Shown here: piece by piece, positions 3,001 through 57,668 of the stretch
How the letters are laid out: each line of letters starts with the position of its first letter
How positions within the stretch are numbered: the stretch's first letter is position 1
Made by a program: the position numbers and the translations under genes
The notes under the pieces: model-generated
What the model saw: only the letters and a program-made list of their open reading frames with translations
The model's database searches: none
Told to the model about the DNA's origin: nothing
NCBI GenBank assembly: GCA_965178125.1
Contig: OZ237735.1
Location: 2,418,001-2,482,000, forward strand
DNA from: Bilabrum cf. latius
Taxonomy: Eukaryota
Length of the DNA stretch: 64,000 bases
Direction of reading: 5' to 3'

Positions 3001-4002
3001 GATGAGGTTCGGTCAGGTGCAGTGGTACTTTCAGTAGCAGCGGACGACGCACGGGAAGGGTCGGCCTGCCGCGTAGGGGAGCCGCCAGTGGACGAGGCGG
3101 GTGTAGAGCTCGAGCCAATGCCCACCTTTGTGCCTGCCGCCAGGTACTGCATGGCCGACTTCACCACCATGCGCCTGACCGAGTCGCGCGGTGCTTCCAC
3201 GGCCAGACCCGGAAGCACGATCTGAGCCATTTCGAACTCGCGGTCCTCCTTCTCCTTCTCCTTGTCTTCGCTGCCTGCGCCAGCGCCGGCACCGTCACCG
3301 CCAGCCTCCTCTGAGGCTCCAACCTTCTTGCCTTCACCTCCAGCCGTTGCCGCTGCAGATGAAGGGCTTGCATCCGCGCCAGGCGACGACAGCTTGCCTT
3401 CTTGGAATCGGGTGCCCCACTCGTACAGCGCCCCCTCGTCATCCCACGCCAGAGACATGGTCTCGCTCGCGCAAATGCCAGTGATTCTTTTTCCCAGCAG
3501 CTTCTCGATTCGAACGGGCTGCCAGCGAAGCACCAAATCGTCCTGCTCGTCAGAGCTTGGCTTCTTCGCTTGCCTTGCAGATGCGAGCAGAGGCACTTCT
3601 CTGCCAAGCTAGCCTTCCACAGCTCTGCCGAACGACATGACGTGTCCCGAGCTCGTGAGCACCAAGGTATGTCCTGCGCCCCCTTCTATATCAACAACCG
3701 ACGTTCCATCGAGCATATCGTTCAGTCGAGGCTCAATTTCCGAAAAATTTCGCTCCTGCCGGCTGACCCGCCCCACCAGCCGTTTGCCATGTTGTGTCAG
3801 CGGCGACTTATCCGCAAACCCAAGCTATCCGTCCATATTTCGACCCCATGCAAATGTCTGTGAATAGAAATACAAATAAATTTGTTATTGACATTGTTAA
3901 AATGCGGGTCGAACCTTGCGATCGAGTAAAAGTGCCCCTAAGAACGAGTGAAGGTGCTTTCGTAGACCACATGAAAGGTGGTACTATAGAACTTACAGAC
4001 AT
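1..4002 (-). CDS. RCC1-repeat + BTB/POZ domain protein (3' end runs off the window); exon 4002-3997, intron 3996-3858, exon 3857-<1
   Basis: ATG TCT|GTAAGT...TTCACAG|ACA TTT GCA TGG gives MSTFAWGRN. ORFs 2790-3596, 1614-2774, 1224-1613 and 408-1103 share one frame and are separated only by TAG. RCC1 motifs: AWGRNMDG*LG, SFGRAVEG*LG, GFNDRGQLG, ACGASHTLLL, ACGQNHSLAV. Split BTB motifs: VHGEILLARCPLL and LGALVTYLYMDTV...LAQRLGLSRL. Confidence 0.85.
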
Positions 4003-26747: not shown

Positions 26748-26954
26748 GCAATTTACAATGTCTCTGACCTCTGGGGTTGGCTTCTGTGTGCCACCGAAGC
26801 CGTTCCTGGCAAAATTGAAAATGTCTATCTTCATCTTCAATATTGTATGCCCGGTTGCAACCGTCTTCCGGACGCGCTCAGGTCTGCTCTTCTCACCAAT
26901 ACTTCAAGGAGCCAACCAAAATTATCCTTCATGAATGTTTGAGCTGGAGCAAAC

Positions 26955-29900: not shown

Positions 29901-30179
29901 CGACTGCCATTTCAGCCTGCGACTTGCAGCGTGGACATCCCGGTGAGTGCACTTGCGGCACCAGAGCACGTGACGGGCGGCGACGGACCCGCAGAAGAGG
30001 GCAAGGACTCGAAACGTGTGGGCAAGGCGAAGCAAGGTCATGAAAGCGCGCCACAAGCTGCTGTCGGGCAGAGCTAGGCCCCCAGTGATGCTGAGATAGC
30101 TGCCGGGTAGGCTTGGGATTTCTACGAGTTCTTGTCATCTGCCCAAGTGGAGGCGCAAGTCCGCCGAATGGGGTACTGA
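26955..30179 (+). CDS. EF-hand-like / Sfi1-like repeats / coiled-coil / IQ-WW / B-box-like protein (~1,074 aa)
   Basis: One frame through at least 13 TAGs to TGA 30177-79. EF-like FRSFDGDRPGGLNHINF; Sfi1-like repeats RRCFVEWK, RRALRTWLKW, ERYFGAWK; IQ-like ALQAAFLSHRMR; WW-like WILRKD..GRYYY; CxxC...C..CFSCW...H. Confidence 0.7.
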
Positions 30180-30266: not shown

Positions 30267-33200
30267 TCAGGGCTCCTGTGGTGCAGGCGCAGGCACCACA
30301 CGAGCTGCATCCTGTGGTGGCGCAGGTGCCGGGTCCTAGGCACTCCTCACATTCACACGCACGGTGAATGCACTTGCACCGCTAATTTCTTTGTTTTTTT
30401 GACCCTAGCCTTTAGTAGCAGCAGCGGCAGATCCCCGGCCCTGCCTCTGCTTCTTGAGCCTGTTCTGCTCCCTCCTCTTCCTGAGAGTGGTCCAGTAGCC
30501 AGGCCTGCTGCGCTCGATGGCCTTCTGCGCCTCGCACTCACTGATGCAGCACTCCTCAAACCCAGTGATGCTACCACAGCACTTGGCAAAGCTGTTCTAT
30601 GCGCAGCAGAACAGGTAAACAGCGCCATCTCGCCCCCCGCACGGTGCGGCGACGCACCTCGCGCAGGACAGCTCCGCTTCATCAACCGATTGCTTGCATT
30701 GGATGGCACCGCAGCAGCAGGTTTTCTTGTAAAATACGTGACATGGCCAGCAGATGACGCCCTTGTGCAGGCCAAAGAGAAGCGCGATGGCCAGGGTGGT
30801 CAGGGTGAGCATCACGCCGCTGTCCCGGCCGGCAACCGACTCCTTGACATCGACATCATCCGGTCCCATGGGAGGACCAGCGAAGCTGACGGTGCCCTTA
30901 TCTGCCAGCTGGCTCGCGTCCATGAGCACCTCCATGATCGTCAGGGGTATGATGACCCACATCATGCCGATGAGCCGCGGAGCAACGCAGTACTGCCTCT
31001 GCAGCCGGTCCCTCGACATCATGCCTCTGAGCCCAGGCAAGAAGCAGGGGCAGCACTTCGAGCAGCACGTGTCACAGAGCATGCTGCATAGAGTGTGCTG
31101 CTCGCGCGATGGAGCATCACCCTTCTGATCGCCCGCGGTGATGCCTTCCGAGTAGCTCTCGTTGGGTCCCACGCTCGCATCCTAAAACATGCCGGAGGGC
31201 AGCTTGGCTGAGCCATGCAGTGAGCTGGGCAGGGTCGAGTCGTTGCCACCTTCGTTCTGACCGTCATCGAACGAAGGCCTGGCTACCTTTGAAGTGGTCG
31301 ACGATCCTTCGAAGCTTCCAGTCGACCTCCGCCTGTTGGTGCTGGCGTTCGCAAGCTCCTTCCGCACAGCTTCAAGACTTGGAGGCGCGTTGCGCCCCAT
31401 GTGCAAGAAATCGGCCGCATTGCGCTCTTTCACAAGAGAGGAAGGTGAGTCTCGGCGGGCTCCGCTGCGCCCACCAAGGACCGCGGCAACGCTGTCCCTG
31501 CGGCGCTTGGAGGGCGCCACTCGAGTGGATGAGGCAGAGCTGCTTCCCCTCGCATCGGACGACCGCGATCGACCTTTTGATGCGGATGATCCGCCTGCAG
31601 ACGCAGTGTATTCATCCCCATGCTACTTCATTTTGATCTTTTGCTTGGAACCGGACTGGCGGCAGGGTTTGCTGCTGCGTCTAGTCGCTGCGAGGATGCC
31701 GGCCTTCGAAGAGGAAGACACATCTTCGACCGAGTCATCAGATAGTCCAGAGGTCATTCGAAGAGATGTGATGTCAGGAACTTGACCCGGGCGCACCTTG
31801 CGGCGGGACTGGTCGCTCCCCGGCTCTCGCTGGACCGGTACGACATGTTGCGCAGGGTCAGCTGCCCCGCCCGTGCGGCTTACGTTCGGAGTGGATGCAG
31901 ATCTTGCCTAGCCACGCAAAATGGAAGCAACTCGAAGGTCATGCCGCCTGCCATATGAGGACGAAGAACTACCTGTCACTTCAAACAATGGGCCTTGCTT
32001 GACTCGCTTCAAGCCATCTGCAGTGCCCAAAGAGCGATCCGGTCCGCTTGGGGTGCTTGCATCGGCTGGTAGCAGGACCTTTAGCGATGAATCCGCGGTG
32101 ATTGTCTGTCCTGGAGACCCAAATCCTTTTGTGGCCCTCCCCAGACCGCCGGCTTGCTAGTTCACTTCGATGCTGTGGGATGCGGCGGTAGCGTGAGTGA
32201 ACGAAAGCTCCCTAGCCGGAATAGGGCTAGACCAGCTCTGCGCGTGGGGCTTTTCTCCACCTCTTGCCAGCACCGACGTGCCAAACTGGGGCTAGGACAG
32301 TCCAGGGCGCAACAGCCCGGACGGAAACCCGTGAAAGCTTCCGTGACCGCTGTCGCGCCTGCCCAGTTTCGTGGCCCCGCTGGCTGCCGCCCCAGCACCG
32401 TCCCTCCCCATGCCTCTAGTTTGACCAAAGTCGAACGAGCTTCTCCTGGTTACCTGCGTGCCGATTTCTGCCTCGCTGATGGGAGCAGAGGCGCGATGTG
32501 CAGCGTCGCCAGTGGCATCAGACTCATCTTGCTGTTGCCTCCTTGGATGCTTAATGCCCTTCCTCCTCCCAATGATGTGTTCCTTGGCCTTGGCACCATT
32601 GTCAGAGTTGGAGGCTCGGATGTCGCTGGAGGTGGCGTCAAAGCTGCAGGCGCGACGACCAGTGGCACTGCCGTCCTCGTATCCTTGGAATGAGCCGACA
32701 CTACCATTCCCAAACGTCACATGAGAGACATTCGACACTGCATGCGGTGCTTCTGTTCGCTGAGAGCCTTGCTCCAGGGCCGGGTCTACGGACATGACTG
32801 GGGACGCACAGCCTCTTGCAGTAGTACCATTAAGAGCTTGATTCGGCTGTGGCGTTTGTGCAGCGAAGGCATGTGTCCCCGTCGAGGCCTGCCCTGTCGC
32901 AGAGGGGTCAGGAGCCGCACCCGCCTTCTTCCATCGATTGCTCTGCTAAGCAACGCCTCTATTGCCTACTGTTTGATGTGTTAAGGAAGTCAGCGATCCA
33001 TCCACTGTTTGATCGGTATCTGCTGCTGGCAGCCTGAGCGACCCCCCGGCATCGAGCATTACGGCCGACTCAAGGGTGCCCACTGAGGCAGTGTATGCGG
33101 TTCCAGCCAAGAATCGAGGCATGACCCCAGCAACGAGAGCCATGTCAGCTTGCATTGCAACATCGTTAGGGTTACTATCTTTCGAGTCATTGGCGACATA

Positions 33201-33845
33201 CTTGGTCGTTGCAGCGTCACCCACTTCCCGTGATGACCCCTGCTGACCAGCGACATCCCGAGTCCACACGCGAAGCTTCGGGAGTTCTGCCGCCTTTCGA
33301 ATTGAATAACAATGCAGGTATATCGAACATATTCCCCCAATTAAGGCAGGCAGAGAATACGTCAAGAACCAGCTGTCTACAGCAGGCTAGCACAAAGTGG
33401 CATGCTGCTCCTGTCCGCTAAGCAATGCCCCAACGGAGGCCAGCAATGACGAGCAGGCCAGTAGATACAGTCTATACTAAAAGTACTGCCGTTCCACTTC
33501 GTAGCGCTTTATGATGCGGCCACTTGTGGCGTGACAAATCCCAAGACCTGTGCTAACTGTGATGATTCCGACAATGAGCAGCGCAACCGTATGATTCGCA
33601 ACACTCTAGGCAACACAAATCGAAAAATACGACAATACGTCGAGACCGAAGCACCCTGGAATAAACGATATGCTCTCTATCACGGATACGGCAAGCAGAG
33701 CACTGGCTGCATCGCGCGTAGCGATTCCTACAAAACGCGAGCTTCTGAGCGATAGACCGGCTACAACGAATAAAAGAAGTAGAATACTACAAAGTCTAGC
33801 TGCGATTGCTGCAGCCGAACCGATCGAGTCGCCCTGATCAGGCAT
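30267..33845 (-). CDS. Multi-pass (7TM/GPCR-like) membrane protein with a very long low-complexity internal loop (~1,190 aa)
   Basis: ORFs 33606-33902, 32946-33365, 32292-32795, 31182-31520 and 30597-31172 are one frame broken only by TAG and end in TGA at 30267. About five hydrophobic helices are N-terminal and two more follow a Ser/Gly-rich insert of roughly 750 aa. Cys clusters are present. Confidence 0.6.
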
Positions 33846-33963
33846 GGTATTGTAGTTCGTTCGGAAATCGGCGCCTGCCAGACTTGGTCGCACGTGCTGC
33901 ACATGTTCCGCTGCGCGGCGCCCCTCGTCACCCCGGGCCTGGTTTGCAGCAACAATCCGAGAT

Positions 33964-34893
33964 ATGGCGGCTCGAGATGTTCATGGTCGCGAGAAACCAT
34001 CAAAGGCGCTTTACATATAGCATATGCCAACTGACGTAGATCCTGCTGAGGTGGGTCGTCTGTTTGCTGGCGAAATCGGGTTTGTAGACTTCCGGCCGGT
34101 TCGAAAGATGGCGTTCATTCAGTTTGACACGGAGAAGAATGCCGCTGCTGCCCTACGACGACTACAGGGTCACACGGTCCAAGATGGGTCTAGACCGCTC
34201 GTGCTTCAGTTCGATCACGGCGCCATGCACGACAGCGGGAGCTACATCGACAAGCGCAGAAGTGCCCTGCTCGACGCAGAGCTGGCAGGCACGATACCAT
34301 ACTGCTGCACTGCCTGTCGTACTGAGATATTGCGCCTTGTCGCGGCGTGGCCGCTGCTCAGCAGTCCACGAAGAACTGTGGATGGATCATTTGCCGTAGA
34401 GGAGAAAACTGCACTCCGTAAACTGATGGCTGCCAAGGCCCCAGCAGTCAACGTTGTGAGACGAGACGGCTCGAATGAAAGCGGTGTCCCATCAGTATCG
34501 ATGGCCTCTGGAGAGCGCTCCGTTGCACCGACTGACGCATCGGCGAGCAGCGAGGGCAAGCCAGCCCGACCATCCTCCTCCTCTCACTCGGCCAGCTCTG
34601 CGACTTCAAGCGTGACCCGCGAGGCGGCTTCCGGGGAACGCGTGGCAGAGGCGAGGCACATGCTGCACTGTCCTAGGTGCGACGTGCCGGTGGCTTACAG
34701 GGCCAGACCGCTGGGCGAGCCTGCCAGGTTTCTGTTCGTGCTGGATGGGGCCTTGGCGGCGCAGGTGGACGGGGCATTGAGCCACGCTGCGGTACCCAGC
34801 TAGTCAGGCAAAGCGAGCGCGGCAGGTAGTAGCGCCACGGGCGAAGGGGGCGATGGGGCGCCGCGCAGGCAGGCTGGTGAGGTCTTGGCCTGA
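33964..34893 (+). CDS. RRM domain fused to STEEP1/CXorf56-like zinc-binding domain
   Basis: ATG 33964; RNP2-like ALYI*HMP and RNP1-like KMAFIQF; then YCCTAC...LLSSPRRTVDGSFAV and LHCPRCDVPVAY...FLFVLDGAL. TAGs at 34018 and 34801; TGA at 34891-93. Confidence 0.7.
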
Positions 34894-36632: not shown

Positions 36633-36890
36633 TCAGGATTCCAGCATTGACAGCCGCATTGCTTGCTATAGCGCGGCCTGCTCCGCTTTGCCGAGATCTC
36701 CTACCTGATCCGCGATCAGCTTGGCGGTCCTGGCAGAGGGAATGCCATGCGTGGACACATGCAAGATGCCCGCACCACCGTTGGTAGATGTCGCTCCACC
36801 GAGCGGCGAAGCTCCCCCCGATCCAGTAGCCACCCAATGTGTAGGTTCCGCTGTCGGTGCGCGGCGAGTCGATGATCTCTCGATTTCAAC
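36633..36890 (-). pseudogene. 3' gene fragment ending in a ubiquitin-interacting motif (UIM)
   Basis: The frame reads ...DLGKAEQAAL*QAMRLSMLES-TGA, a typical UIM with TAG at the LQxA position. An in-frame TGA lies upstream at about 36891, and I found no clear start or upstream exon. Confidence 0.45.
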
Positions 36891-37101
36891 TCATTCCATC
36901 TTTGAAGTCTCCATCTTGGCGTTGGCATTCGACTTGTTCGAGGAGAGCTCTCAGACCAGGTTGGGCGAAATAGACTAGTCTACTGCAGGGTGCCAGGTCG
37001 TTCTGTTTGTCAGTCGCTGGTTTTCGTTCTGCAGCCGCCAGCCAGACGGCCTGATATATATACAAGTTGCAAACGTGGAGCATCGACTGCCCAACAGCAA
37101 C

Positions 37102-38658
<1,557 letters not shown>

Positions 38659-42893: not shown

Positions 42894-43229
42894 CCTGTTC
42901 GCTTGGGAGCAATGGAATGCGTTCCATGAAAGCCAGACTCCAGCTTCAAGAACGCTAGCCTTGCTTGTCAACACAACCACAAACTCTGTGATTTTCAGAT
43001 GAAACAGCGATAAACAAAGAGTTTATACACCGCAGACAGACCTAATTGTGTAGTTATGTCCTATTTGATCGAGTATGGGATTTTATTTGCGAGTTGCCGA
43101 TCCACACAAAAGTGCATTGCACGATAGCACGCTGTGGACGGGACAAGAAGCGGTTGGTTTCATCGAACTGGATGGCGAGATGAAGCAAATGTTCGCGCAT
43201 CTAGGCGTATTTCTTGAAGTATTTTAAGG

Positions 43230-46200
43230 ATGTCAGGTCGTCGCCGTGGCTAGAGGCAGAGACGTTTCCAGGCAGACAGTCAATGGCAGTGGAGTGAGCT
43301 GGCATCTGGCTGGGTACGGGCTTCCCGCGATGTCTTGCAAGGATCAGGGAGGCATAGCCTCCGGCATTCTGACTATGATAAAGGGCGCAGATGGCACCCA
43401 CAGTAGGCGTGGTATGACGATCGTAGGCATGTACACCCCGTGGCAGCTGCTGTAGGGATCAGCCAAGGGTGGCAAGGATGGGAGCCTCGGCATGCCGCCG
43501 CTAGAATTGCGGAAGCTTCTTAGTCTGACCCTATCACAATAGATCATAACAACCGAGCACGTAGGCCTGGTGGCCGGGGAATTGACGGTGCGGGCCTTCC
43601 TTTGCCGCAAGATGCGCCCGTGGTAGACGCCATGACTGCTCCCACCCTGGGAAACGAAAGCACGTCAGCAAGCCAGGGCGAAGCAACTGCTGCCACCAGC
43701 ACCAATAACTCAGCCGGCAGCGCAATTCGTGCAGCAGGCAGCATCGGCCAGGGCACCACTGAGCACGGCAAACCACCGGCACGTCCGGTACCATACGGAG
43801 GGACTGCGAACTCATCATTGGGGGTCCACCGGAAGCAGCTGGAGGAGGAAAAGGGAGCGGGAGAGATTCTCTTTGCCCGGAGAAGGCGCCCTGGCAAGGG
43901 AGGTGTTGCTGCGGTCGCCCGGACAGGCTTGGCCTCTTCCTATGACCCGCCAATCGATGCCTCCGCCGGGGTGGCAGGCAGCAGCGCCCTCCCCCTCAGC
44001 CCCAGTCCCCGCGCGTCGCAGTCTAGATCCAGGTCCAGGTCCAGGTCAATGTCTTCAGATCGGTCTGCCTCCGTCGAGCCCAGCGGCCAGCGCACTCGAC
44101 TCGGTCCTCAAGCTGCTGCAGACGCGAGAGGGGTAGTGGACCGTGGAAGGGCCACTAGGAGAGTGAGCGGGCAGGCATCCGTTGCGACTAGCAGCAGATT
44201 CTCTGGCGCTGGTGCCCGTAGCAGGGCAGGAAGTGTCGCCAGTGCGGCGGCAGCAACTGGCATGCGGCTGCGAGCCAAGCGCCCCGTGCTGTTCGTCCGA
44301 GCCGAGCGCCCCCCAGACCCTCTGCTGGCCACCATTCCGACCGCATACCTGCGGAACAAGAGGGTGCTTCAGCTCTTCCCGGGCGATGGGGCCTCGTCTG
44401 CATTCCTTGCTGAGCACATGCACCCGCTGCACGTCCTAGGACTAGAGCCCGATTCGTCTCTCGTCAGGCAAGCACGGGGCGGGCTATCAGAGAGGGCGGC
44501 TAGCCTTGCCCTGGCTGCTGGGCTGAGACCTGGAGTAGACCTGGAGCTCGACAGGCGCGCCCATGCAGCGCAAGTTGAGCGCAGCAAGGATCAACATGAG
44601 AGCTCAAGAGCAGGGGACTCGGCACTGAAACCCTCCGGCCCCGACGCAGAGCACGGGTAGCAAGCCAGTGCGTCGGCTGTGCCCTTCCTGCGCATCGGCC
44701 TAGTCTCGAGCCGGGAGAGGGAGCGCTCTGACAGCAGCTATCATCTTGCGAATAGTCAGGCAAGCAAGGGTGTATCCTCCTCCACGCGTGCCGCAAACAG
44801 CGGGGACGAGCCGGTGGACTCGGGTCTTGGCCCAAGCTGGTCTCCCGTATCCATCGACGTGCCCAACAACACATCAGTTGTGTCGCATAATGGGGAATAG
44901 TGCAGCGACAGCAGCAATGGCAAAGAGGTCAGTAGCAGAAAGGAAAACTCGTTGACTGGGACATCGGCAGGGCGGAAACGATCTCGGGCAGAGATGAGTG
45001 GAAGTGCGACGGATCAGAGAGGTGGCGCTGCAGGAGGGCAGAGTTGCCGATCCCAAGCTTCGATGCAGTAGGCCAGCCCGCAAGGCGGCTCGGATTCAGG
45101 TATGCCACAGCAAGTGGTTCTTTTGCAAGCGTATGCGTCTGGAACGCAGCAGCATGCTGAGAATTCAAGCAAGAGAAGGCGAGTGGAGGACGGCTTGAGC
45201 CAGCAGTCCGTGACAGCCCACCAACGCCGAGCAGCTGAAGCGCTGGTGCCGATGCCCATTCCTTTGGCAATGCTGAGAATTGCTAGAAGGCGGAGACGAC
45301 CGCTCTTTCTGTTGCCGAAGGTTGCGGCCACGGAGTACCCGGCTGCTGCCCGTGCCTTGGCATCTGATCGATCGCGTGCGTCGCGCAGCAGCGCTGGTCA
45401 GGTCGGTGGCGCCACATCTACTGCCACATCTACTGCCCTCCAAGATAGCACGGGGACAGCTGGGCGCGTCAGTGCCTCCGGTACCAACACCGGTTCTATG
45501 GGCCGTGCGCAGCACAGGTCGCAAGGTGAGCCCGAACAGAACGAGGCAGACGATCCGTGGCTGCCTCCGGGGGAGTCCGGTACGAAGCACAACGAGAACC
45601 GCTCGGGGGCGTCGATTGGCGATGGAAGTAGTCACTCAGCCGAACTGGCCGCAGAAGGTCACGCGGTCGATTCACTCGGGGCAGGGGACCTTGAGCGCCT
45701 CGATCTGGAAGGGCACAACAGCGGCGGGTTCGGGCCATCGTTGCAGCAGGAGCAGCAGCCGATACATCGTGCGCTGCGAGGTGCCAACACCTGGGGCTTT
45801 CCTCACAATGTGACGTTTCGGCAGGAGGACCCGTGCGATGGAAGGCTGTTGCGCAGGCACGCGGTAGGCTCCTTCCAGGTCGTGCTGCTCCTAAGGGCGG
45901 GTGTGGCGAGGATGCTTCGACGGTGCGGAAGCGAGCGCGAGGTGGTGCGCGTGCTGTCTCACTGCCACCGGCTGCTGCCGCCGGGTGGTGTGCTGCTGCT
46001 TGAGGTACCGACCGGCCGGTGGCTTCGGTCGTGGCAGCGACGCAAGGAAAAGAAGGACTTGCAGACGGTGCGTCAGTACCCAGGTGGTGATACAGGGGAT
46101 GACACAGCTGGTGGCGAAGGCGTTTCGCGTGGAACAGATCGAGGTGCAGATGCTGCCAACCAATCGCAACTGCAAAGCACGAGCCAATTGCATGCCAATG

Positions 46201-46928
46201 ATGCAGACGAAAAGGCCATCGGGTCTAGTGGGCCTATTGGAGACGATGCTCCTGCTGCCAACGAGGCGCATGGGCACGCTGCATCAGTGCCAACGGTGGG
46301 CAGTCTCGGAGCATTCCAAGGCACGAACAACGCTGTCTCTGACCCGCCTATTGCTGATGCCGGCACCGGTAGTGGTGCTGGTGCTGGTGCTGGTGCTGGT
46401 GCTGGTGCTGGTGCTGGTGATGGTGCTGGTGCTGGTGCTGGTGCTGGTGCTGGTGCTGGTGCTGGTACTAAGACAAAGGCTGGGAATGGGACTGGCACCG
46501 TCGCAAGCCTTGGGCTTGGATCCAAAGTGGAGCCGGAGTTTGTCGGAGACCTCCCAATAGAGTCTCCTTCTGCAGCCCATGCCGGTGCTGGGGATGGAAG
46601 CACGGGGATGCATGACCTCCCAGTGCCGGCCAACTAGCCCGAGGGTGCAATCCACGACCAAGCAGGTCCCGATCCTGCCGACGTGCTGCTGCCGTACATG
46701 CTGCCGTAGATTCTAACCAGGCAAGTCGGCTTCCGCTCCGTGTCGAGGCTACGGTCCGTGAGGCTGCCTGTTGACGTTGGAAAGGCTTCCTGGGGCAAGA
46801 CAAGCTGGGATGACTGTGGGCTCGATTCCATTCCACACACAATGCATGCAAGCGGCGTGCAAGAGCGGCAGATTGTGGTGCTCGAGAAGAAGCGCCTGCC
46901 TCGAGGGAGATTGGGTAGAGTGGTTTGA
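43230..46928 (+). CDS. Bin3/MePCE-like RNA methyltransferase homolog with degenerate motifs and large low-complexity inserts (~1,232 aa)
   Basis: One frame through TAGs (including 44658, 44898, 45069, 46635 and 46707) to TGA 46926-28. Blocks LRNKRVLQL...[33 protein letters not shown]...[13 protein letters not shown] and ILTRQVGF...RQIVVLEK follow the Bin3 domain order. Confidence 0.65.
46374..46466 (+). repeat. (GGTGCT)n coding microsatellite (Gly-Ala)
   Basis: About 15 hexamers, one of them GGTGAT. Confidence 0.9.
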
Positions 46929-47169
46929 CTGCAATACTATTCTGATTCAGTTGTGACACTGTCTGTTCGCGTCAAAGTTTCGTTTATTCAAGCTGTATGC
47001 ACCCCACCACACACCAAGCAAACTCGTTCCTTGCAGCACATACAAGTTGCGCCCTCAGCCACCCCACCCCAGCACACACTGCCACTGGCAGCAGTGCCGT
47101 GGAGCCCGCCGGCCGGCGTCATCACACCTCGTCCTGCCCTGACGTTGGGACTAGCACATATCTAGCACC

Positions 47170-48323
47170 ATGGCAGCCGCAGAAGGTGGATCAGCCGACA
47201 AGGGTTCATTTTCCACACCTGTGTGTGTGACCGGCGCCTCTGGATTTCTTGCTGGCCATGTTGTAAAGGGACTACTTGAGCGCGGAGCCACGGTGAGCGG
47301 GCTGCTACTGTTCTGCTGCAGATTTGGCGTGCGCCTCGGCTAGTATGCAGCATCACAATTCGTACAATTTATTATCAACTATTGCAGGTGCATGGGACAG
47401 TGCGGTCTCTGAAGTCTGCCGCGAAGACTGCTCACTTGACTGCTTTGGAAGGTGCGAAGGAGCGCCTCAAGCTTTTTGAGGCTGATCTGCTCAAGGCCGG
47501 CAGCTTTGACGAGGCAGTGGCGGGTTGTGACACTGTTATTCATACGGCCAGTCCTTTCTTCAATGGGTCTGACCCTGATCAGCTGGTTAAGCCTGCGGTG
47601 GAAGGGACCACGAATGTGCTGGCAGCCTGCAAGAAGGCCGGCGTTAAGGTATTTGTGTGTACGTCCTCTACCGCAGCCGTGTTTGGAAAGAAAGGCGGAG
47701 TTCCAGCGGGTCATGTTTTTACCGAGGGCGACTGGGCAGACGCGGACTAGGCCACGGAGAAGGGCTTTCACTATGTCACCAGCAAGATTTTGGCCGAGCG
47801 CCTGATCCACGAGCCCAGCCGGCTCGCCGAGGGTGCCCGCGTGTGCGCCATCAATCCCTGCCTGATTCTGGGACCCATGCTGCAGCCAGTAATGAACACT
47901 TCTTCGGAAGTGATCGCTGATTTCGTGACGGGCAAGCACGAGGCGATTCCGACCGGTTACATCACTGCTGTGGACGTCACCGACACTGCGCAGGCGCACA
48001 TCGAAGCGGCCTTGAGGCCGGAGGCGAAGGGCCGGTTCCTTATGGTCGGGAAGAACCAGGCAGCCAAATGGGAGGACTGCGTGGCGGCCATGCGGGAGAC
48101 TCTCCCCGAGGACCTCGCCTCCAAGGTGCCCAAGGAGCTGGCGGCCAAGGGCAGCGAGAAGGCATGGAGGTACAACATGGATCTCAAGAGGGCCGACTGC
48201 AGCAAGTGCGAGAAGGTGCTGGGTATCGCCCCCAAGGACCCCAGCGAGAGTGTGAGGGAGTTGTGCAAGGACCCAGTGTTCCTTGGCCTGGTGAGGGAGT
48301 AGCTCAAGGCTGAAGACAAGTGA
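47170..48323 (+). CDS. NAD(P)-dependent epimerase/reductase (extended SDR, CCR/DFR-like); exons 47170-47292 and 47388-48323
   Basis: Motifs VCVTGASGFLAGHVV, VIHTASPF, PAVEGT.NVL, TSSTAAV and catalytic YVTSK. Phase-0 GTGAGC...TTGCAG intron. The TAG at 47748 lies just before YxxxK; second TAG at 48300; TGA at 48321-23. Confidence 0.9.
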
Positions 48324-48511
48324 GTGGACAGGCAAGAGAAGGCGAGTCCGTTGGCGAATGAGGGGTAAGCATGGGTCAGCCAGTGAGGTGTTCCACGACC
48401 CCATCGGTTGATCAGCTTGTCTGGCGAAGTCCTGCCAAAACACACGCGTGGAATGAAACAGCATGCCCATCATTCTAAAGTGTTCAAAGCAGACAGTCCG
48501 CACTACGGCTG

Positions 48512-51500
48512 TCACACGCCACCCCGCATCACGACTATCTTGTCTCTGCTCCCCCTCGACGGCATGGGAGCGCCCTCGATGGAAGCAAGGTCGCCCTACC
48601 CACGCCTGCCCTTCTTGACACGCGGTGCCCTCCCCCTCCTCACACGACCTCTGCGCCTTACGCTGCTGCCAGCCGCTGATGCCAGGTCGTCCAGCTCAAG
48701 CTCGCCGGAGTCGCTGCTGCTGCTGCTGCTGGTCGAGTTGGTGCCGGTGTCATCGCCCGTCTCGCTCAACCCGGAGGCGTAGGGCAACCCTGCGATGTCA
48801 CTTGCATCTCGCCGGGCATGGCGTCTGTCGCTGTCATGGATGACCTGCCTTTCGTGGCCGCGGCCGTGCCGCCGGTGGTCGGTGCCATCAGAGTGCACCG
48901 AATCCAGTTGCCGTTCGCTTCCTCCTGACCCCGATTCGCCTGCCTTGGAGCTTCCGGCCATGGAATCCACCATCATCACGCCGAGCCGGCCCAGCTACTC
49001 ATCCAGTTCGTCCTGCGGCCGGTTGCTCTCGTACCGATCCATCCTCGGCGGGGGCTTCAGGGGAGTGCCCGGTTCCGTGCCCTTCGGCTGCTTTCCAACC
49101 ACCCCCATAGTTCCTTGTTGCGCGCGCCTCGCCTTGGCATTGGCTCTCTTCCTCGTGTTCAGGTCAGCGCTTGCCGGGGACAGCAGCCCAACCTCCGGGC
49201 TGGAGCCGGCTGCCGAGTCGCTGTCCGAATCATCTGCGGCACGGGCAGTTGAAGGGCCATCAGAGGTATCTACACGCTGGTCTCCACCTAGCAATACTCC
49301 ACTGTCTGGCGGCTGATCGCGGCTCGCGCCCTGCACAGTGCCTGTTGGTAGGGCGTCTGACTGGTTCCGAGGCTAGCGCTGACGACTAGTGTTGGGTGAT
49401 TTCCAAGTGTCCGCACCACCCATCCGATCGCCGTCCAAGTCAGAGCCTGTCTCGCTTCCACTGCTGGTATCAGTGTCAGTGCCCGTGCCCGTTCCGCTTC
49501 CCGAGTCGTCGTCGTCAGAGTCGCTAACGATGAGTTCTGGTAGGGCGCTCCGGTTGCGAGGCAGGCGCGCTGCACCTCCCAGGCCCTGCCGTGGGCCTGT
49601 TTCGCGCGGCTTTCCCCGCTCGTGATGCAGGTTTGCGTGGCTGTGCACGGGTTCATGAAGCGGGGTAGAGGCTGTGCTGGGCACCTGGGGGGGTACCGCC
49701 ACATCACCGACAGAACCATCTCGAGCCGAATTGGGCATGGTAGACTCGGTGCTCTCGGACATTCCGGCAGGCACTGTTCGGTGGTCCTGAAACGGGATCC
49801 GCCCCATCGTCATATTGTGGGCATTGGAGGCATGGTGGTGCAGCAGCCCCACTAGCTTTCGTTTCGTCTCGTGGTCCACCCCAAGCTCTGCAAGACTCCC
49901 CCCCATGTCTTGGAAGTCGCGAAGAAGATGGCTCAGCTGCCCACTGCTGCGCCGCCGCTCGTGGCCGGAGCCCTACCGACGTTTCTGCGCATCAGTCAGC
50001 TCGTACTTTCCCTCGGTGTCCGACAGCTGAAAGCCGTCCATCCCAGCCGGCCCCATCGAATCCTCACGGGGTGCCGTTTCGGCAATGCTATGCTCCCGGC
50101 GCTCGTACGGGTTGGAAGCACCAACATCTGTTTCTTCGGGTGCTGCGAGTCCCCACCGCTTTCTAGCACTGGTGCTGCCAGGTTGCCTCGCCACTGGGCT
50201 GCGTTCTGACTCCGTACCTGTGTCTGAAGAAGATCCACCGTGTCCGCCAAACTCGAACCTCGCCCCGGGTCGTCGCGGAGTTGGCCCTGCCAAGCGCTTT
50301 GCATTGTCAACCTGGTGCCTGGCCTACTTCTTACGGGCTTCACTCACGATTGGGTTGTCTTCGAAGCTGCTAGAGGCCTAGGAATCGCCAACCACTGCGC
50401 TTCGCATCCGTCCTTTGCCCCTCTTTGCCCTTTTGTCTTTCTTACTGCCAGCGGCCTTTCGCTTCGGGTGGTCCCTGTTGCCGCGCCCCCGCTTGTTCTG
50501 GCCACGGGTACCGGCCTTCTTGTGCTGCTGCTTACCGGTATCGGTTGATTTGGTGACCGCGCTCGGGGTCGGCGACACGCGTATCGAAGCGCCCGAGTCG
50601 GCGGCCACGTCCGCATTGCCGAGTCGGTGGTCCTCGAACATCACGCTGCCAGTCGCAGCCATCTGCGACTATTCCGCAGGGAACAGGTGACTGACTGACA
50701 CAACGCTGGGCAGCTTACGAATCGCGTCTCCGTTGGCATCGACAAAGGTGGCCGAGTCGTCCTGGCTGGACCCGCTCATGTCCATGATGAAACCGGCGAA
50801 CTGCCGGCCGTCTGACGTGACCCCCTCTCGACCTACGCGAGCTGCTCGCTTTTCTGCCCGCTTTATTTCGATCTCCTTTGCGGATGGCTGCCGAGGCGGC
50901 CGACCGTCCGCTGCTGGTGCGCTTGCAGCACTGCGAGAAGGGTTGTGCGAGCCGCGGCCGGCTACCAGGACCTGTGCCCCCGGCTTGCCGACATCGGTCG
51001 CGCTATCACTCGCAAACTGATCTTCATCAGAGGCAGCTGAGGCCGGCAGTGGTATCGCCACCCCTCGATCCTCGAGCCGACGAGGCGGCGCCTGCGGGCT
51101 CGCGGAACCTGCGCTGCCACGCCGCGGAGGCGGAGGCGGGGGCTGTTTCTGCTGGATGCCGCGGATCGTCGCCATGGCTGCCTGCTCTTGGGCCCGAGTG
51201 GAACTCGAGTCCTTGCTTCCGGCCTCCACGCCAATATCGTAGTCATAGTCGTCGAAAAAGGCCGCCCCAGCCACGTCCAGGCTGGAGTCCCTGCGGCCGT
51301 ACCCCTTGGCGGGGAGGCCGGGCTGCGAGCTGACAGAGCCCACGGAGCCCCGCCTCCCAAAGGACTGTCTCCTGCCGGCTGCCATGCCCTGGTTGCTGCC
51401 AAGGTGCATCCCAATGCCGGTACGACCGCCTGATGCCGCCAGCCCAGAGCGATCTCCTGGGGTTAGGTGAGCATGGCCAAGAGGCCGAGAGGGCGACTCC

Positions 51501-54500
51501 TCGCCGTGGCTGGAGCCTTCCCTGTGAACGTCATCCCCAAAACTGTCGAGCTCGTCAGAGACACCCTTTGATACCTCGTAGCGATAGTCACCGGAATCAT
51601 CAGACGGGCTGCTGTCGCTCAAGTCGTCGCCACCGTCGCCCGAAGAACCAGGCGCAGCGCCCGGTCTTGATGCTGTCGCGGCGGCCGCTGCCGAGACCTC
51701 TGCCACTAGCCCTGCAATGGCAGCCCTCTCCTGGTGCATTGCATTGCGACGAGCCCGCTCCACCGCCAGCTCCACGGCAGATCTCGCCTGCAACTCAACC
51801 ACCGGGACGTGCTCGTCCCCGCCGGTCGAAGTCGGTGCAGCCCCGCCGCCGCTGCCAAGGCTGGCACGCACGCTCCTGCCGCTTCCGCTGCTCAAAATGG
51901 CAGCGAGCGCGCTGACACTCGGTGGGCGCCTAGTCGCGCCGCTCTCCAGCTCGTCCAGAACCCCAGCGCACTCCTTGACCACGAGGCTGTACACGCTCCT
52001 CAAGAGCTTCCCCGAGGCCATGCTTGCCATCTGAGAGGGCGGGGGTGCGTTCCTGGACGCAAGGATCTCCGCCAATACGGTCGCCAGTTGGAACTCAACG
52101 GATCCATCCACGTACACGGCGTCGTGCCCACGAGTGGAACCGGTGGACCCCGCTGTCCGTGAGGCGCCCATCGAGAGCCCAGCGGCCTGCCTCGCGCTCG
52201 CAAGCTCTCGCACGTACAGTAGCCTGCTGCAGCCCAGCCGGATGGCACGAGGATCGTCGCTTGGGCGGGGCCAGCTGCTAGCCTACACTGCACTGGCGGC
52301 CTTGCGCTCACTGGTGCGGCTGCCCTCGGCAATCCACGTCTGCAGAGGGGAGGCAGGAGGCGCGTCATCGGCGGGAGCAGCAGCAGCGGCAGCGCCATTG
52401 GCGGCAGTGCGGTCTGCACCGGTGCCGGTGGACTGCTCCAGCTATTTACGGACCGTGTCGTGCTCTTCGAGCACATCCTTGTCTTCGCCGTTGTCCCCGA
52501 ACTCTGCCACATTGCCTGCACCTGCCTTCTCCTCCCTCTCGGTTTGCAACGCGTCACCCTCCTTGCTCTCGTAGCTCCCGGCTCGGTCACGGCTGCCAGC
52601 CGGCACCCTGCCGCCGCCTCCTCGACGCACTCGCTTGCCCACTCGACCGCGGCCTCGCCCTCCTGCAGCGAGAGACACCGTCACAGGCGAGGCAAATGCG
52701 TGCAGCCCCTTGGTTCCCGCTGGAGACTTGCGGGGCATCGTCAGGCCGCTGCCTCGCCTGGCCCTTCTCTTCTTCGCGGCCTTCTTGTTTCCTGTGGGGC
52801 TAACACCGACGCCGGTGCTTTGACCGGCCTTGGAAGGCACCGAGAATGCGTCCACGCTGCTGCGCTCTGGGCTCTCGTCTCGACCGACTATGCCCGCCGG
52901 TACAATTTCTCGAACGGTGCCGGAGTCTTCGTCTTCACCTCCCACGCGAGCCTCTGCATGGCGGCGATGGTGGTGGTGCTTGTTGTGTTTGTGGTAGTGA
53001 TGGTGGTGGTGATGGCCCGCCAGCTGAAGGCCCCCGGCCGGCACCCCGCTCGGCAGCCACTGCTGCTCGTCGTCGTCCCAGTGCTCCAGGCGCGCTTCCC
53101 TCAGAGCAGCCACCTCCGATGGCGCGTACACCACCACGATCGGATCGTCAGCCGACCTCCCGCCGGCGGCGCTGCTGGCACCATCGTCCCGCTTGTGCTG
53201 CTCGTTGAGAAGATCAACGGCCGTGTCGTTCACGGCCTTGGCGCTGGGCTCCTCATCTCCCTCTGCGAAGAGGAGCCTGGCGAGGGATGCAGCAACAAGG
53301 GAGGGGCACGTGCTGCTGTGCTGCCCCTTCCGCCGATGACCTGCGCCGTCGCCCGCCGCAAAGCCCGTCCTGGTGCGAGGGGATGCGAAATCAGGAGACA
53401 TTGGAGGTACGGCAATCGGCTTGACTCCAGGCGAGTGCATCGGGCTTCGCATGTCGAAAGCTCCGTCTTCTTCCTCCGAGCCGGCGGTGGACGCTGCCAG
53501 CACGCCGCCCCCCATTCTCTTCCTTGGGAGGTGGGTGTCCTCCCCAGTTCCAACACTCAGCGAAGAGCCGCCGAGCGTGTCCCCCACCCCCGAACTAAGT
53601 CGCTCCCACTGCTCCCGAAGCCAGGCGGCCATGGCCTGCGACGACACGTACACCGCGTCGAATCGAGTGGGCACGCCTCTCCGCACGGACTCTGCGGCAT
53701 CTCCCAGGCTAAAGACAGGCCAGACCACCACCTGCAGCCCGGACTGGGCGGCCACCTTTTCGATCGCAAGCATCATGTAGGCCTGCCGATCGGGGCTCGG
53801 CTCCGCAAGCAGCACGTTGATGGAGGCTGCCTGCGCCTTTGCCTCGGGCAGCAGACCGCGCTGCAGCACCCGCTGCAGAGCCGCCATGTCTCCTCGAGCT
53901 CCCGTCTGAGGACCTGTCTCCACCTGCGACTTGGAGCCGAGCAGGCCGCCGAGCTTGCTGGTGACCCTGGCGGCGAGAGCGTGCCGAACGGCCCTGGATT
54001 CCTTGCCAGAGAGAACGTCCGCAACCAGCCGGCCAGTCCCATCGAGCTACTCGGCTGCGCGCCGCAGGGCCTGCATTGTGCCGTGGTCCGGATCAGAGAG
54101 ACCCGCAGTGGCGCCATGACCGATGGCCCCCTTGGCAGTAGGAAGAGCATTGGACGCAGCAGTGACAGCATCCAGCACCCATCGCTGCAGGACCTGTCGT
54201 TCGGCGTCCAGTGCAGAGTCTCGTCCTTCGGCTGCTGCTGCGTGCTCCCGCTGGTCATCGAGCTTGCGCTGCTCGAGCGCCTACGCCACCATCTTGTAGG
54301 CCTCCAGGGCCACTACGGATGCGTCCGGTTGTTTCTATTGCTGGCGCGCCTTCGATCGCGATGTGTGGCCGGATGCGCTGCTGCTGCGATGCTTGCTCTT
54401 GTGGCGACTCGTGCTGTTTCCTTTTCCGCCGCGAGCGCCCCGGTTGGAGTGTCGATCGCTCGTCGAGCGCCCACGCTGGTGTCCCCCACCTCCACTGCCC

Positions 54501-56396
54501 TTGCCGCTGCCCCTGCCCCGCCTGTGCTTGCTCTTGGCAGGTGCACTGTGGCCTCGGTGCGCTGCCGCAGCACGAGCACCGCTGGCACCTGACCCGTGCT
54601 TGTGGCGGGGCCTGGCGCTTTCTTTGTTCTCTGGGCTCGCGAAGGTTCGCCTGGAGCCAGCCTTGGGAGACGGGGGCCCCTCCACATTCACAACCGCGCC
54701 GCCGTCGTGATTGCCGGCGAGGTTGAGGCTGAGTGCGCTGTCGTGGTACTTCAAGGCTGCATCTTCGCCGCCTTCCCGCCTGGAGCTGCCTCTGCTTCCG
54801 GCGAGTTGCTTGTCCCCAGCCCGGGCCCGCACTCCTGCCTTGAGCACCTGGAACCGCATGGACCACGAGAGGATGCCGTACAGGTTCTTGGCGACCAGGT
54901 CTGCCACCCCGTGAGCTGCGAGAAAGACATAAAGAGGCAGGGCATGCATCAAGCTGGGCTGGGGGCGGGCTAAGGCCTGCGGCTCGTCTCTGTGCGCCAA
55001 GGAGATCGTCCGTCCCAACTGTCTCGCGAGGGCGCCGGTAGCCTGGCTGGCAGATGCAGTATATACCACGAGAGATGCGAGTGCCGGCATGCTGGACCTG
55101 ATAACAAGTGTGTGCAAACTTGCTTTGGAGCTTGCGCGCTCTGCTCACCTACTTTGCTGGAGTTGCTCGAGATGGCTCCGTAGCCCTCCGGGCCCAGAAG
55201 GAAGAGCACCGGGAATGAGCCCCAGCCGAAAGCGAAGCACAACGAGCCTGCGACGTGGAGTGAGAAATGAATGTATCTAACTGAGTTGAAGCAGACTAGC
55301 CTGTCTGGAGGTCGAACTCGCAGCTTAGCGAGGCACGCGTGTTGATGTCTCACTCAGCACCAGCATCCGCTTGGACTCTTCCGTGGGGTACGTCCCGTAT
55401 GCCGTAATGAAGGACTCTGCTACAGTTTTGAAAACAACGAAGCCTGCGCTCGCCCCCAGCACGAACAAAATGGCCTTGAGTGTGTCGTTTGAGGTGATTG
55501 CAGCTGCCATCCCGAAGACGATCATCACCTGGTCTGCAATGATAGCGACCAGAGTCTTCGCCGGGGATCGATTCTTGATGCCTGCGCCAGAGGACGATAT
55601 GTGCCAGCTATTAAGAGTACAGCTCATGTGCCATGGGATCGCCGGCACATTCTAGGCATTCCATCAACACGGCGTTGTTGCGCCCAGACCGATTCTCACC
55701 AAGCGGTAGATTCGTCAAATGAATCAACTGAATCAGACATGTACACATCCATGAGCTATATCTCAAGAAAGGGAACTGATTGCCGGCTTCCAAGCGAATT
55801 GCGGAGGCTGGGCCCAGGATTACTCGAAGCAAGTAAAATATAGCCTCCACAGTCACTACGTAGATCTGCAAGATGTAGGCTATTTAGTCTGATGAAATAA
55901 GCATTTGGCTAACGATCAAAGCCTCGAGTATGCCTATTTGAACACATCAGTCGACCATCTGATGTGTGCACTTGAGCACAATACCTTCTCTCACGTTCTC
56001 CCAGCTCGCAGAGTTGTGATACGTCCGCTGGTACCAGAAAAAAATTGCTTGAAATGCACTAATCAGAGTAACCACAATCCCTGCGATCGATAGAAAGTGA
56101 TCTAGCACCGGATTGCAACACGACGCATCGGAGTGAAAATGGCAAGCATGGTTCGCTTCCCACCGCGAAATTTAACGAAAACATCACTGCTCTCAGTAAC
56201 TCTCAATTATTGAGAGATCGGATGGCCCATCCACTTCCGTACACGGATGGCAGCCAGAAAACAGATCTGTGGCCCGGCTTCGAGCGCCTTGCTGATGATC
56301 GACTTGTGCCGTAGTTTGCAAGCCAGTCTTACCGACAAATGTTCCAGTATCCAGTTGAGGTCCGATCTCATCATTTTCATCTAGTCGTCGCTGCAT
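48512..56396 (-). CDS. Channelrhodopsin (anion-channel-like) with ~2,100-aa cytoplasmic tail containing a receiver-like domain; exons 56396-56333, 56080-55995, 55865-55700, 55581-55354, 55247-55149, 54915-48512 (~2,348 aa)
   Basis: Five phase-consistent GT-AG introns assemble SWENIYVVTVE (TM2), LRYSSWMCTCLIQLIHLTNL (TM3), IIADQVMIVFG (TM4), GWGSFPVLFLLGPEGYG (TM6) and HGVADLVAKNLYG (TM7, retinal Lys). The last exon stays open across about 12 TAGs to TGA at 48512. Confidence 0.88.
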
Positions 56397-56660
56397 CTAG
56401 AGCCGATTGTATGCACTCAACGACTGCTGTTGGGGTCGCAAGGATTCCGGGCTTGCCGTCGCCCGATCGGGCCGTCGCGGCGGCTTCGTGGTCGCAAGCG
56501 GCTCAACACGCCGTCCACCATACCCGCATTCGAGCTCTAGCCGCCGCAGCAAATAACCCGTAGGGCTGTTGCAGCAGCATTTAGAGTGGTTGTTTGACGT
56601 GGTGTGCGGGCTGCCACAGACTGTGAACAAAGGCTGTCAGGCCTGAGGTGAATCTCTGAA

Positions 56661-57668
56661 ATGGGGCTTTGCGCATCAAGCGAAGAGGTGGAACGTAAGT
56701 CGCCAGGATACTGCCTTGGCAATAAGTGGCAATCTTGCATTGATCTTGTTCGTCGTTAGTGCTAGCATTCGTTTGTTTCCGCGTCTTTTCTTGTTTGTCA
56801 TTGTGTTGCAGCGCGGCGGGCGGCTCCCCAGCAAGGCAGAGGCGGAGGGCAGAACGCGTCACAGTACCAACGAAATGGGGCAGGTCAAGCTGCACAGGCC
56901 AACGGGGGGCCCCGAAGCGGGGCGGGTGCCGTGCACGGCACTGGCATACTGCGGCCCTTGGAGCCGTGGGACAATCCAAGCGGCCCCATCGCTCAGTCCG
57001 TGCTGATAAGACAAAGGCAAGAATTTTGGGAATCGCGCGTGACAGGCGCGAAGATCGTTTGGGACAATTTGAAGGTGGTGTGCGACTCCTTGCTGAACGA
57101 TCCGCCAGAGTACGAGTCCGCTTCGGCCATCCTGGAGGCTGCGTAGCTGCGCGTGCCGCAAGGCACGCTGAATGAAGTGTACGACGCTCGGGGGAGGCGT
57201 TACGATCTTCCTCCTTTTGTGTGGTCCACCCCGCGCAACGCCATGTCTGACGAGGAGGTGGCCCGGCAAGAGGCCGCCAAGCGGAAGAAATTCATAGGGC
57301 CGGTGAAACCGCTCAAGCTGCTCGCCCGGCTGTCCACGACCGACACCAAGCAGGAGCAGACCATCGAGGTGACCGTGAAGAACAACAGCACCGCCGCGGA
57401 GCTCAAGCAAGCCATCCACGAGTTCCTAAAGACGGGGCAGGCGGACAAGGGCAAGGCCGAGCGCTCTGTGAACGTGTGGGCCCCAGAGGGCCTGCCCCCC
57501 GCCATGCAGCGCGTGTTCTTCATGGGCAGGGAGATCGGGGAGCACGATCACATGCAGGGGGCCAAGGTGAGCGAAGGCTTCGTCGTGCAGGTGTTCATCG
57601 CGCAAGGTGCCAGGGCGGTGGCGGGGGCGGGCGGGGCGGCTGCGGCAGCTGGCGGGGCTGGGTCCTAA
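56661..57668 (+). CDS. Ubiquitin domain-containing protein (UBTD1/2, DC-UbP-like); exons 56661-56694 and 56812-57668
   Basis: MGLCAS (myristoylation/palmitoylation-like N-terminus), phase-1 GTAAGT...TTGCAG intron, RQEFWESRV..VWDNLK, AA*LRVPQGTL.EVYD..G.RYDLPPF, C-terminal ubiquitin-like QRVFFMGREI. Ends in TAA. Confidence 0.85.

Follow-up and report, generated by a model that had tools for sequence, protein, structure and literature searches.

A hidden, spliced channelrhodopsin-family gene with in-frame UAG codons in Bilabrum cf. latius

What is encoded on the minus strand between positions 56396 and 54830 of a 64,000-nucleotide stretch of Bilabrum cf. latius DNA (assembly GCA_965178125.1, contig OZ237735.1, positions 2,418,001 to 2,482,000; hereafter the window), how far does the product extend, and which ion, if any, would it conduct? 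The original prediction, made from the letters alone, was a hidden six-exon gene for an anion-channelrhodopsin-like protein, with an atypical Thr-Cys-Leu (TCL) motif. We find that this channelrhodopsin locus is a real spliced gene, a conclusion we hold as virtually certain, and that residues 1 to ~245 of its product form a complete microbial rhodopsin, with seven helices, that belongs to the channelrhodopsin family. The gene model begins at an ATG at 56396 and comprises six exons separated by introns that all have GT..AG ends, as follows.

Exon 1: 56333..56396, minus strand, 64 nucleotides (nt); start ATG at 56396-56394, short N-terminus of 21 codons plus 1 nt
Exon 2: 55995..56080, minus strand; helix 1 and its W-E-N end, with joints at both sides in spliced contigs
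Exon 3: 55700..55865, minus strand; helices 2-3
Exon 4: 55354..55581, minus strand; helices 4-5
Exon 5: 55149..55247, minus strand; helix 6, Trp190 and the LGPEG motif
Exon 6: 48512..54915, minus strand; helix 7, the cytoplasmic extension and the stop TGA at 48514-48512

Thirteen public sequencing runs carry at least part of the stretch, and four of them (X1, X6, X7 and X8) were compared over 53500-57200. In contigs of X6 and X7, runs from two different studies, all five predicted introns (252, 129, 118, 106 and 233 nt) are skipped at the exact bases with 0 mismatches, including the joint between exons 1 and 2 (56332/56080); the skips show CT..AC ends on the plus strand. X8 skips one of the five, weakly, with 19 letters on the shorter side, and the DNA-like run X1 carries the whole stretch unspliced, with none of the five joints. 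X6, X7 and X8 also skip a GT..AG intron at 56695-56811 in the plus-strand neighbour. The types assigned to the runs are guesses, and the flagging of X6 as 'probably DNA' speaks against our interpretation; the RNA origin is argued from the joints themselves. That is, intron-less forms of two adjacent genes, together with an unspliced DNA run, are most simply explained by contigs derived from mRNA. The DNA run and the spliced contigs of the two further studies are identical in sequence, with 0 differing letters, and no upstream ATG lies between 56416, where the X6 contig starts, and 56396.

Thus the hidden multi-exon gene is borne out, and the splicing that the original prediction proposed to look for is seen in public runs. 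The range it gave, 54830-56396, spans the rhodopsin domain, but the coding sequence runs on to 48512. The expectation that standard annotation would fragment the gene is also supported; because it holds five introns and 12 in-frame UAG codons, the gene would be invisible to standard pipelines.

Sequence comparison places the domain almost certainly in the channelrhodopsin family. The translations of exons 3, 4 and 5 match the Pfam family Bac_rhodopsin (PF01036) with expect values (E) of 3e-5, 1.5e-6 and 5.9e-4, respectively, at collinear profile positions 40-89, 99-165 and 171-199 of 224; these are three of the five exon translations, exon 2 and the long last-exon piece being without a family. 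In the PDB the best matches of the same three exons (E = 4.8e-6, 1.5e-3 and 7.7e-6) are all channelrhodopsin chains, and the Pfam and PDB matches together are far beyond chance. For exon 3, all 12 PDB rows are channelrhodopsins: iC++ (29.7 bits), C1C2 (27.1-27.6) and ChR2 (25.5) have E between 4.8e-6 and 1.1e-4, and GtACR1 (23.2-23.5 bits, E ~5e-4), Chrimson (22.2) and KnChR (17.1) score lower. For exon 4, the best eight of nine rows are channelrhodopsins (iC++, Chrimson, C1C2 and ChR2; E = 1.5e-3 to 1.8e-2), and GtACR1 has no row among these nine matches, which extend to E of up to 1. For exon 5, the best seven rows are ChR2, C1C2 and iC++ (26.5-28.4 bits, E = 7.7e-6 to 3.4e-5), with bacteriorhodopsins at ~15 bits as against 26-28 for channelrhodopsins; GtACR1 is absent from the best 60 of 87 rows. 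Helix 7 alone matches only KnChR from Klebsormidium nitens (9j7w), at E = 0.17, with Asp-x3-Lys in register, and neither exon 2 alone nor the whole head of the last exon gives any PDB sequence row. Hydropathy reveals six clear helices and an amphipathic seventh, in which Schiff-base Lys224 and, four residues upstream, Asp220 are found, as expected of a microbial rhodopsin. In the PDB searches with exons 3-5, therefore, the sequence is nearer to channelrhodopsins than to pumps or sensors.

Judged by these scores, the nearest solved structures are green-algal cation channelrhodopsins (CCRs) and their engineered derivative iC++, ahead of the anion channelrhodopsin (ACR) GtACR1. The earlier placement in an ACR-like family is not supported, as exon 3 scores the green-algal CCR structures at 27-29.7 bits and GtACR1 at 23.5 bits. 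The best natural chains for exons 3, 4 and 5 are CrChR1, CrChR2 and their chimera C1C2 (3ug9, 4yzi, 7c86 and 6eid), with ~37% identity to C1C2 over ~146 aligned columns in a hand count of the exon 3-5 alignments. Motif order is the same in these proteins, W124, T127 and LGPEG are also kept, and CrChR1 and CrChR2 likewise have a long cytoplasmic C-terminal extension. Unlike them, the Bilabrum protein carries the replacements E83N, K93F, E97R, E123S, P129L and T159M (CrChR2 numbering), lacks E101, has a helix 2-3 loop shorter by two residues, and comprises 2,348 residues, with 12 UAG-encoded positions. Its helix 7 shares the core H-x-x-A-D-L-x-x-K-N with KnChR, but that helix 7 match is weak and the exon 3 score of KnChR lies below those of the chlorophyte chains.

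Searches of wider protein libraries scored none of 22 candidates for exon 3 and none of 228 for exon 4, even at E of up to 10. An exhaustive phmmer search with exon 3 against 1.84 billion representatives returned three rows, namely one genomic fragment, 51 residues long, from a near relative, with 93% identity over 29 residues, and two unrelated repeat proteins; no channelrhodopsin was returned at E 0.001, the 55-residue query being too short even for similarity at the level of ChR2. Viral contigs gave 72 pattern matches and 0 relatives, and the ESM Atlas gave only unnamed clusters (0.75-0.76) for exon 4. The 64-kb window holds no further rhodopsin gene.

The residues that bear on function were numbered via the CrChR2 chain 6eid, aligned at 84-138, 146-209 and 219-245. 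The pairings of E82 and E83, at the W-E-N/I-Y-V junction, and of D253, K257 and N258, from the motif, use what we take to be the CrChR2 numbering. The correspondences are the following.

Glu49, exon 2: E82, kept
Asn50, exon 2: E83 (E83N)
Glu57, exon 3: E90, kept
Phe60, exon 3: K93 (K93F)
Arg64, exon 3: E97 (E97R)
Arg85, exon 3: R120, kept
Ser88, exon 3, codon 55754-55752, minus strand: E123 (E123S)
Thr92-Cys93-Leu94, 55742-55734, minus strand: the TCL motif, Cys93 being C128 and Leu94 being P129
His99, exon 3: H134, kept
Asp122, exon 4: D156, kept
Met125, exon 4: T159 (T159M)
Trp190, exon 5: W223, kept
Glu202: E235
Asp220, exon 6, 54901-54899, minus strand: D253
Lys224, exon 6, 54889-54887, minus strand: K257, the Schiff-base lysine
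Asn225, exon 6: N258, kept

The alignment confirms what had been read from the letters, i.e., that E90, C128, H134, D156, D253 and K257 are retained, that E83 is Asn, E97 is Arg and E123 is Ser, and that the third helix has TCL in place of Thr-Cys-Pro (TCP). This last reading is identical in the DNA run and in the spliced contigs. The carboxylate of E101, which had been read as Gly, is indeed lost, but whether Gly stands at this position depends on the alignment, HMMER placing a two-residue gap there. Two of the six glutamates found in most chlorophyte CCRs (five in helix 2 and the helix 2-3 loop, plus E123) are thus kept, namely E82 and E90.

What these residues imply for ion conduction can be weighed against published precedents, which are taken here and below from excerpts of the cited sources. 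The retention of E82 and E90 with non-carboxylates at 83, 97, 101 and 123 is described for most cryptophyte, stramenopile and haptophyte ACRs, and the same pattern is described for the H+-selective prasinophyte channels CsCCR and MsCCR (PMC8406140). Because it occurs in both ACRs and H+-selective CCRs, the glutamate pattern is not diagnostic. GtACR1 (6edq, 6csm, 7l1e) shares it, together with a neutral E123 position, and CsCCR and MsCCR share it at all six positions, a likeness drawn from the published pattern rather than from their sequences (PMC8406140). A neutral counterion position is also described within the green-algal family, where DsChR1 and Chronos conduct cations without a carboxylate at E123 (PMC8818676); these two are likened by description. 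Whether the Bilabrum protein conducts anions therefore cannot be told from its sequence, and the proposal of a light-gated anion channel is left unsupported by it.

A light-gated conductance of one kind or another is probable. The single likeliest outcome would be a proton or cation channel, although we hold this at somewhat less than an even chance; it is favored by the family resemblance and by the precedent of CsCCR and MsCCR with the same glutamate pattern. In such a channel, all-trans retinal would be bound to Lys224 (K257 in CrChR2), and, with Ser88 at the other counterion position, Asp220 (D253) would be the sole carboxylate counterion. The Cys93-Asp122 pair, His99, Glu57 and Asn225 are kept. 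Light would isomerize the retinal and open a passive pore among helices 1, 2, 3 and 7. The resulting photoreceptor current would depolarize a motile cell, and the long tail would target or anchor the channel, much as the C-terminal extension of Chlamydomonas ChR1 is reported to do.

Several observations weigh against a cation channel. A pattern limited to Glu82 and Glu90, with a neutral E123 position, is typical of most natural ACRs. The engineered chloride channel iC++ tops the PDB searches with exons 3, 4 and 5 and shares the Ser at E123, and the changes of E97 to Arg and of K93 to Phe lower the negative charge in helix 2. The replacement of TCP by TCL removes a conserved proline and may impair gating. 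Glutamate-poor homologues from core chlorophytes gave no channel currents, according to the excerpted account (PMC8406140). Lastly, the placement in the green-algal CCR clade reflects per-exon scores against solved structures only, and no tree.

The first alternative, which we regard as rather unlikely, is a homologue that conducts weakly or not at all; it would be a sensory or low-efficiency rhodopsin with intramolecular charge displacement only, and the tail would signal or serve as a scaffold. In its favor, homologues from Chlorophyceae and Chlorodendrophyceae with few pore glutamates are described as giving small, non-reversing currents or none in human embryonic kidney (HEK) cells (PMC8406140). 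Here, four of the six analyzed glutamates are lost, the proline of the TCP motif, on transmembrane helix 3, is Leu, and ~2,100 extra residues with a conserved block suggest roles beyond conduction. TCP is described as conserved in 'most' channelrhodopsins, not all (PMC8818676), and our literature search for TCP-motif variants found nothing specific. Against this alternative, the protein retains the Schiff-base lysine, the counterion Asp, R120, W223, C128 paired with D156, E90 and N258. The 97% identity to a related organism across helix 7 plus 40 adjoining residues shows that the domain is constrained, and failure in HEK cells need not mean failure in the native cell.

The second alternative, a natural ACR of the GtACR1 kind (neutral at the counterion position, poor in pore glutamates, with a central-gate Glu), we consider unlikely. 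Every known ACR is described as having a non-carboxylate at the position of E123, equivalent to D85 of bacteriorhodopsin (PMC8406140), and Ser88 is one, a feature that is necessary but not sufficient for an ACR. The glutamate pattern is that of most stramenopile, cryptophyte and haptophyte ACRs, Arg at E97 brings a positive charge, and Asn50 and Phe60 also lean to the anion side. Among protists, ACRs are described as more widespread than CCRs (PMC8406140). In addition, iC++ (6csn/6cso), a chloride-conducting derivative of C1C2, is the best PDB chain for exons 3, 4 and 5, and has Ser in the E123 column, where C1C2 does not. Because iC++ is engineered, however, this likeness would be convergent at a few columns, and iC++ has Gln in the E90 column, where the Bilabrum protein keeps Glu. 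The H+-selective CsCCR and MsCCR share the glutamate pattern, and DsChR1 and Chronos are CCRs without the carboxylate. GtACR1 itself, standing for the one ACR family compared, that of cryptophytes, ranks under the CCR chains for exon 3, has no row for exon 4 and does not appear among the best 60 of 87 for exon 5. Prasinophyte and labyrinthulean ACRs are described as lacking E90 (PMC8406140), which is kept here; His, found here at H134, is described as the commonest residue at that position in chlorophyte CCRs (PMC8818676). Cryptophyte ACRs, unlike the Bilabrum protein, are described in the excerpted text as having no C-terminal extension (bioRxiv 10.1101/2020.04.15.042127). A literature search for anion-conducting channelrhodopsins of ulvophytes or core chlorophytes found nothing specific.

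The extent of the protein depends on how UAG is read. In all likelihood, the gene is read through UAG to 2,348 residues. In the exon 6 frame, 2,133 codons pass with 12 TAG, 0 TAA and 0 TGA before the first TGA is reached at 48514-48512, beyond which TGA turns frequent in this frame; the full coding sequence is thus 7,047 nt, i.e., 2,348 residues plus TGA. The in-frame TAG codons, all on the minus strand, are these.

54335..54337, minus strand: first in-frame TAG, codon 408
First bases 54283, 54049, 52444 and 52285, minus strand: TAG codons 426, 504, 1039 and 1092
First bases 50671, 50380, 50326 and 49975, minus strand: TAG codons 1630, 1727, 1745 and 1862
First bases 49375, 48997 and 48598, minus strand: TAG codons 2062, 2188 and 2321

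An ORF (open reading frame) of 874 residues from a related organism, P0005, is matched by the 534-residue TAG-free piece of the last exon at E = 8e-287. It spans helix 7 and continues from there for 812 residues, across the first three TAG sites, with 86% identity (712/830 columns). The residues found at those three columns are, in order, Met (within a Gln-rich indel that is ambiguous), Arg and Gln. A second ORF of the relative, P0001, is a fragment of its exon 3 with 93% identity over the first 29 residues; both are genomic ORFs that start inside introns. A run labeled as another organism, X5, has 0.90 of the sampled words of the stretch present.

The X6 contig, 8,315 nt long from its start at 56416, is unspliced from 54915 to at least 53500. 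Its length fits a leader of 20 nt, the 7,047-nt coding sequence and a 3' untranslated region (UTR) of ~1,250 nt, the part beyond 53500 being extrapolated.

If the protein instead ended at the first TAG, it would have 407 residues, and what lies downstream would be 3' UTR or a separate gene. The standard code does stop the frame at 54337-54335, and a contig that covers two genes is no proof of a single transcript. However, TAG is the only interruption of the frame over 1,941 more codons. By comparison, 25 TGA and TAA fall within 1,940 codons of one other frame of this DNA, from which the chance of such an open frame is ~1e-11; the remaining two frames have 79 stops each over 44000-54915. Moreover, sense codons stand in the relative where the first three TAG lie, and TAG is in frame in every long ORF of the window, also inside conserved domains. 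This alternative is therefore close to refuted and highly improbable, and a protein of ~260 residues, like one of 407, is not borne out.

UAG is a sense codon in Bilabrum cf. latius, most likely for Gln. Eleven long ORFs of the window, with 16,137 codons, hold 91 in-frame TAG and 0 internal TAA; from the CAA/CAG ratio of 162/419, ~35 internal TAA would be predicted in them. With TAG as sense, giant ORFs fill the window, one of them of 4,402 codons with 16 TAG, and treating TAA as sense merges no long ORFs. TGA ends nine of ten complete long ORFs, and TAA ends a zinc-finger ORF and the ORF of the plus-strand neighbour, a UBD gene. Two repeats of an RCC1-repeat protein carry TAG at the position that is Gln, in the motif GQLG, in sibling repeats of that protein, and Gln is thus the most likely meaning. 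In one of ~10 near-identical zinc-finger repeats, TAG replaces a Glu codon; in the UBD domain of the neighbour, it lies inside the region aligned to human UBTD2 (E = 8.8e-12). This looks like a reassignment of UAG only, to Gln, with UAA seemingly not reassigned. Rare codes of this UAG-only kind are described in the excerpts, and the code of the window resembles them (PMC5304391); some ulvophycean green algae, unlike the window, are described as using a TAR-to-Gln code (PMC2984419). A literature search for an alga with UAG-only reassignment found nothing specific, and the 64-kb window holds no tRNA gene. ORFs with in-frame TAG include the following.

10468-23676, plus strand
26943-30179, plus strand
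30267-33980, minus strand
43218-46928, plus strand
48512-55144, minus strand, the channelrhodopsin last-exon frame

A pseudogene or assembly artefact, as the unusual TCL motif and the lack of an annotated homologue in large protein libraries might suggest, is most improbable, for the frame is intact over six exons, the DNA run and the spliced contigs of two further studies are identical, and a related organism keeps the gene at 86-100% protein identity.

With UAG as sense, the last exon adds ~2,100 residues after the rhodopsin domain. They are mostly of low complexity and rich in Ala, Gly, Ser, Arg and Asp, and no Pfam family was found in the 2,133 residues of the last exon, nor in its TAG-free pieces of 534 and 77 residues. 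To our knowledge, this would be the longest C-terminal extension of any channelrhodopsin, no search of channelrhodopsin lengths having been made. Compared with the relative, helix 7 and the 40 residues after it show 97% identity and most of the tail 55-90%; identity is 97-100% over residues ~492-650, which contain the following block.

53546..53821, minus strand: conserved block within residues ~492-650, a candidate receiver-like (RR-like, or con2) domain

The 126-residue block has no Pfam family at E of up to 10, and a PDB sequence search with it gave chance rows only. A single-sequence AlphaFold model alternates strands and helices at low confidence (pLDDT 41), and Foldseek matches of this model all have E >= 0.2 and are mutually unrelated. 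Among named clusters of the ESM Atlas, OKR_DC_1_N and GlnR_1st come closest (0.78-0.80) and serve as a lead only; both belong to the CheY-like clan. As described in the excerpted source, green-algal CCRs, prasinophyte ACRs and labyrinthulean channelrhodopsins have an RR-like domain (con2) in their C-terminal extensions; it is absent from cryptophyte ACRs and CCRs and from MerMAIDs, and InterProScan misses it in CCRs (bioRxiv 10.1101/2020.04.15.042127). On the strength of these model-based leads, the conserved block may be a con2 domain.

Gene structure in the window is of eukaryotic type, and its DNA is GC-rich (0.55-0.67). Upstream of the channelrhodopsin gene lies a short divergent region.

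56417..56522, no strand: intergenic region of the divergent gene pair, whose contigs begin at 56416 on the channelrhodopsin side and at 56523-56539 on the other

Beyond it, ~106 bp from the start of the channelrhodopsin transcript, is the head-to-head neighbour (56661-57668, plus strand). Its product has UBD and ubiquitin domains, resembles human UBTD2 (E = 8.8e-12) and starts with MG..C at its N-terminus. Three runs confirm the gene's intron 56695-56811, and its in-frame TAG lies in the UBD domain at 57144-57146. Antisense to the last exon of the channelrhodopsin gene, an 809-codon ORF (52163-54592, plus strand) is probably a GC-rich shadow ORF, having no other support.

Further away, the 4,402-codon ORF with 16 TAG (10468-23676, plus strand) has IPT/TIG, cadherin and concanavalin-like (GH43_C2) domains and a C-terminal multi-pass region with weak, TRP-channel-like matches below the cut-off. 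The RCC1-repeat protein (3-3884, minus strand; WD40_RLD, E = 8.7e-63; 7 TAG) continues past the end of the window. The zinc-finger ORF (36709-38658, plus strand) encodes ~10 near-identical C2H2 fingers after a long poly-Ser run, and its terminal TAA falls exactly at a repeat boundary. A PIN_4 domain (E = 7.7e-6) is present in a 1,024-codon ORF (23829-26903, minus strand) with 3 TAG, and the other strand of this DNA holds a 636-codon ORF.

Hundreds of channelrhodopsin homologues are known, more than 150 of them from chlorophytes, as described in excerpts of two sources (PMC8406140, PMC8818676), and for this reason one more is unsurprising in itself. Judged by its sequence, this is a divergent one, with ~37% identity, no TCP proline, a very long tail and UAG-encoded glutamines. 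That the domain founds an unsampled channelrhodopsin lineage in a eukaryote with a UAG-only (Gln) code, and is a functional channel, either anion-conducting or kinetically odd, is a tentative proposal that we would not expect to hold in full; odd channel kinetics are possible because helix 3 lacks the conserved proline. The genetic-code observation is a by-product more unusual than the channelrhodopsin, since a nuclear code with UAG, and apparently not UAA, as sense is of a rare kind.

A natural, expressed channelrhodopsin in which E123 is Ser, E83 Asn, E97 Arg, K93 Phe and the helix 3 proline Leu, and which keeps the DC pair and the central-gate Glu, would probe, for optogenetics, the reach of motif-based prediction of selectivity and the part of the proline in gating. 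Cloning it at full length for a host with the standard code would require recoding the 12 UAG. For the organism, a light-gated channel whose cytoplasmic tail of ~2,100 residues includes a conserved block would point to elaborate anchoring or signaling at the photoreceptor site.

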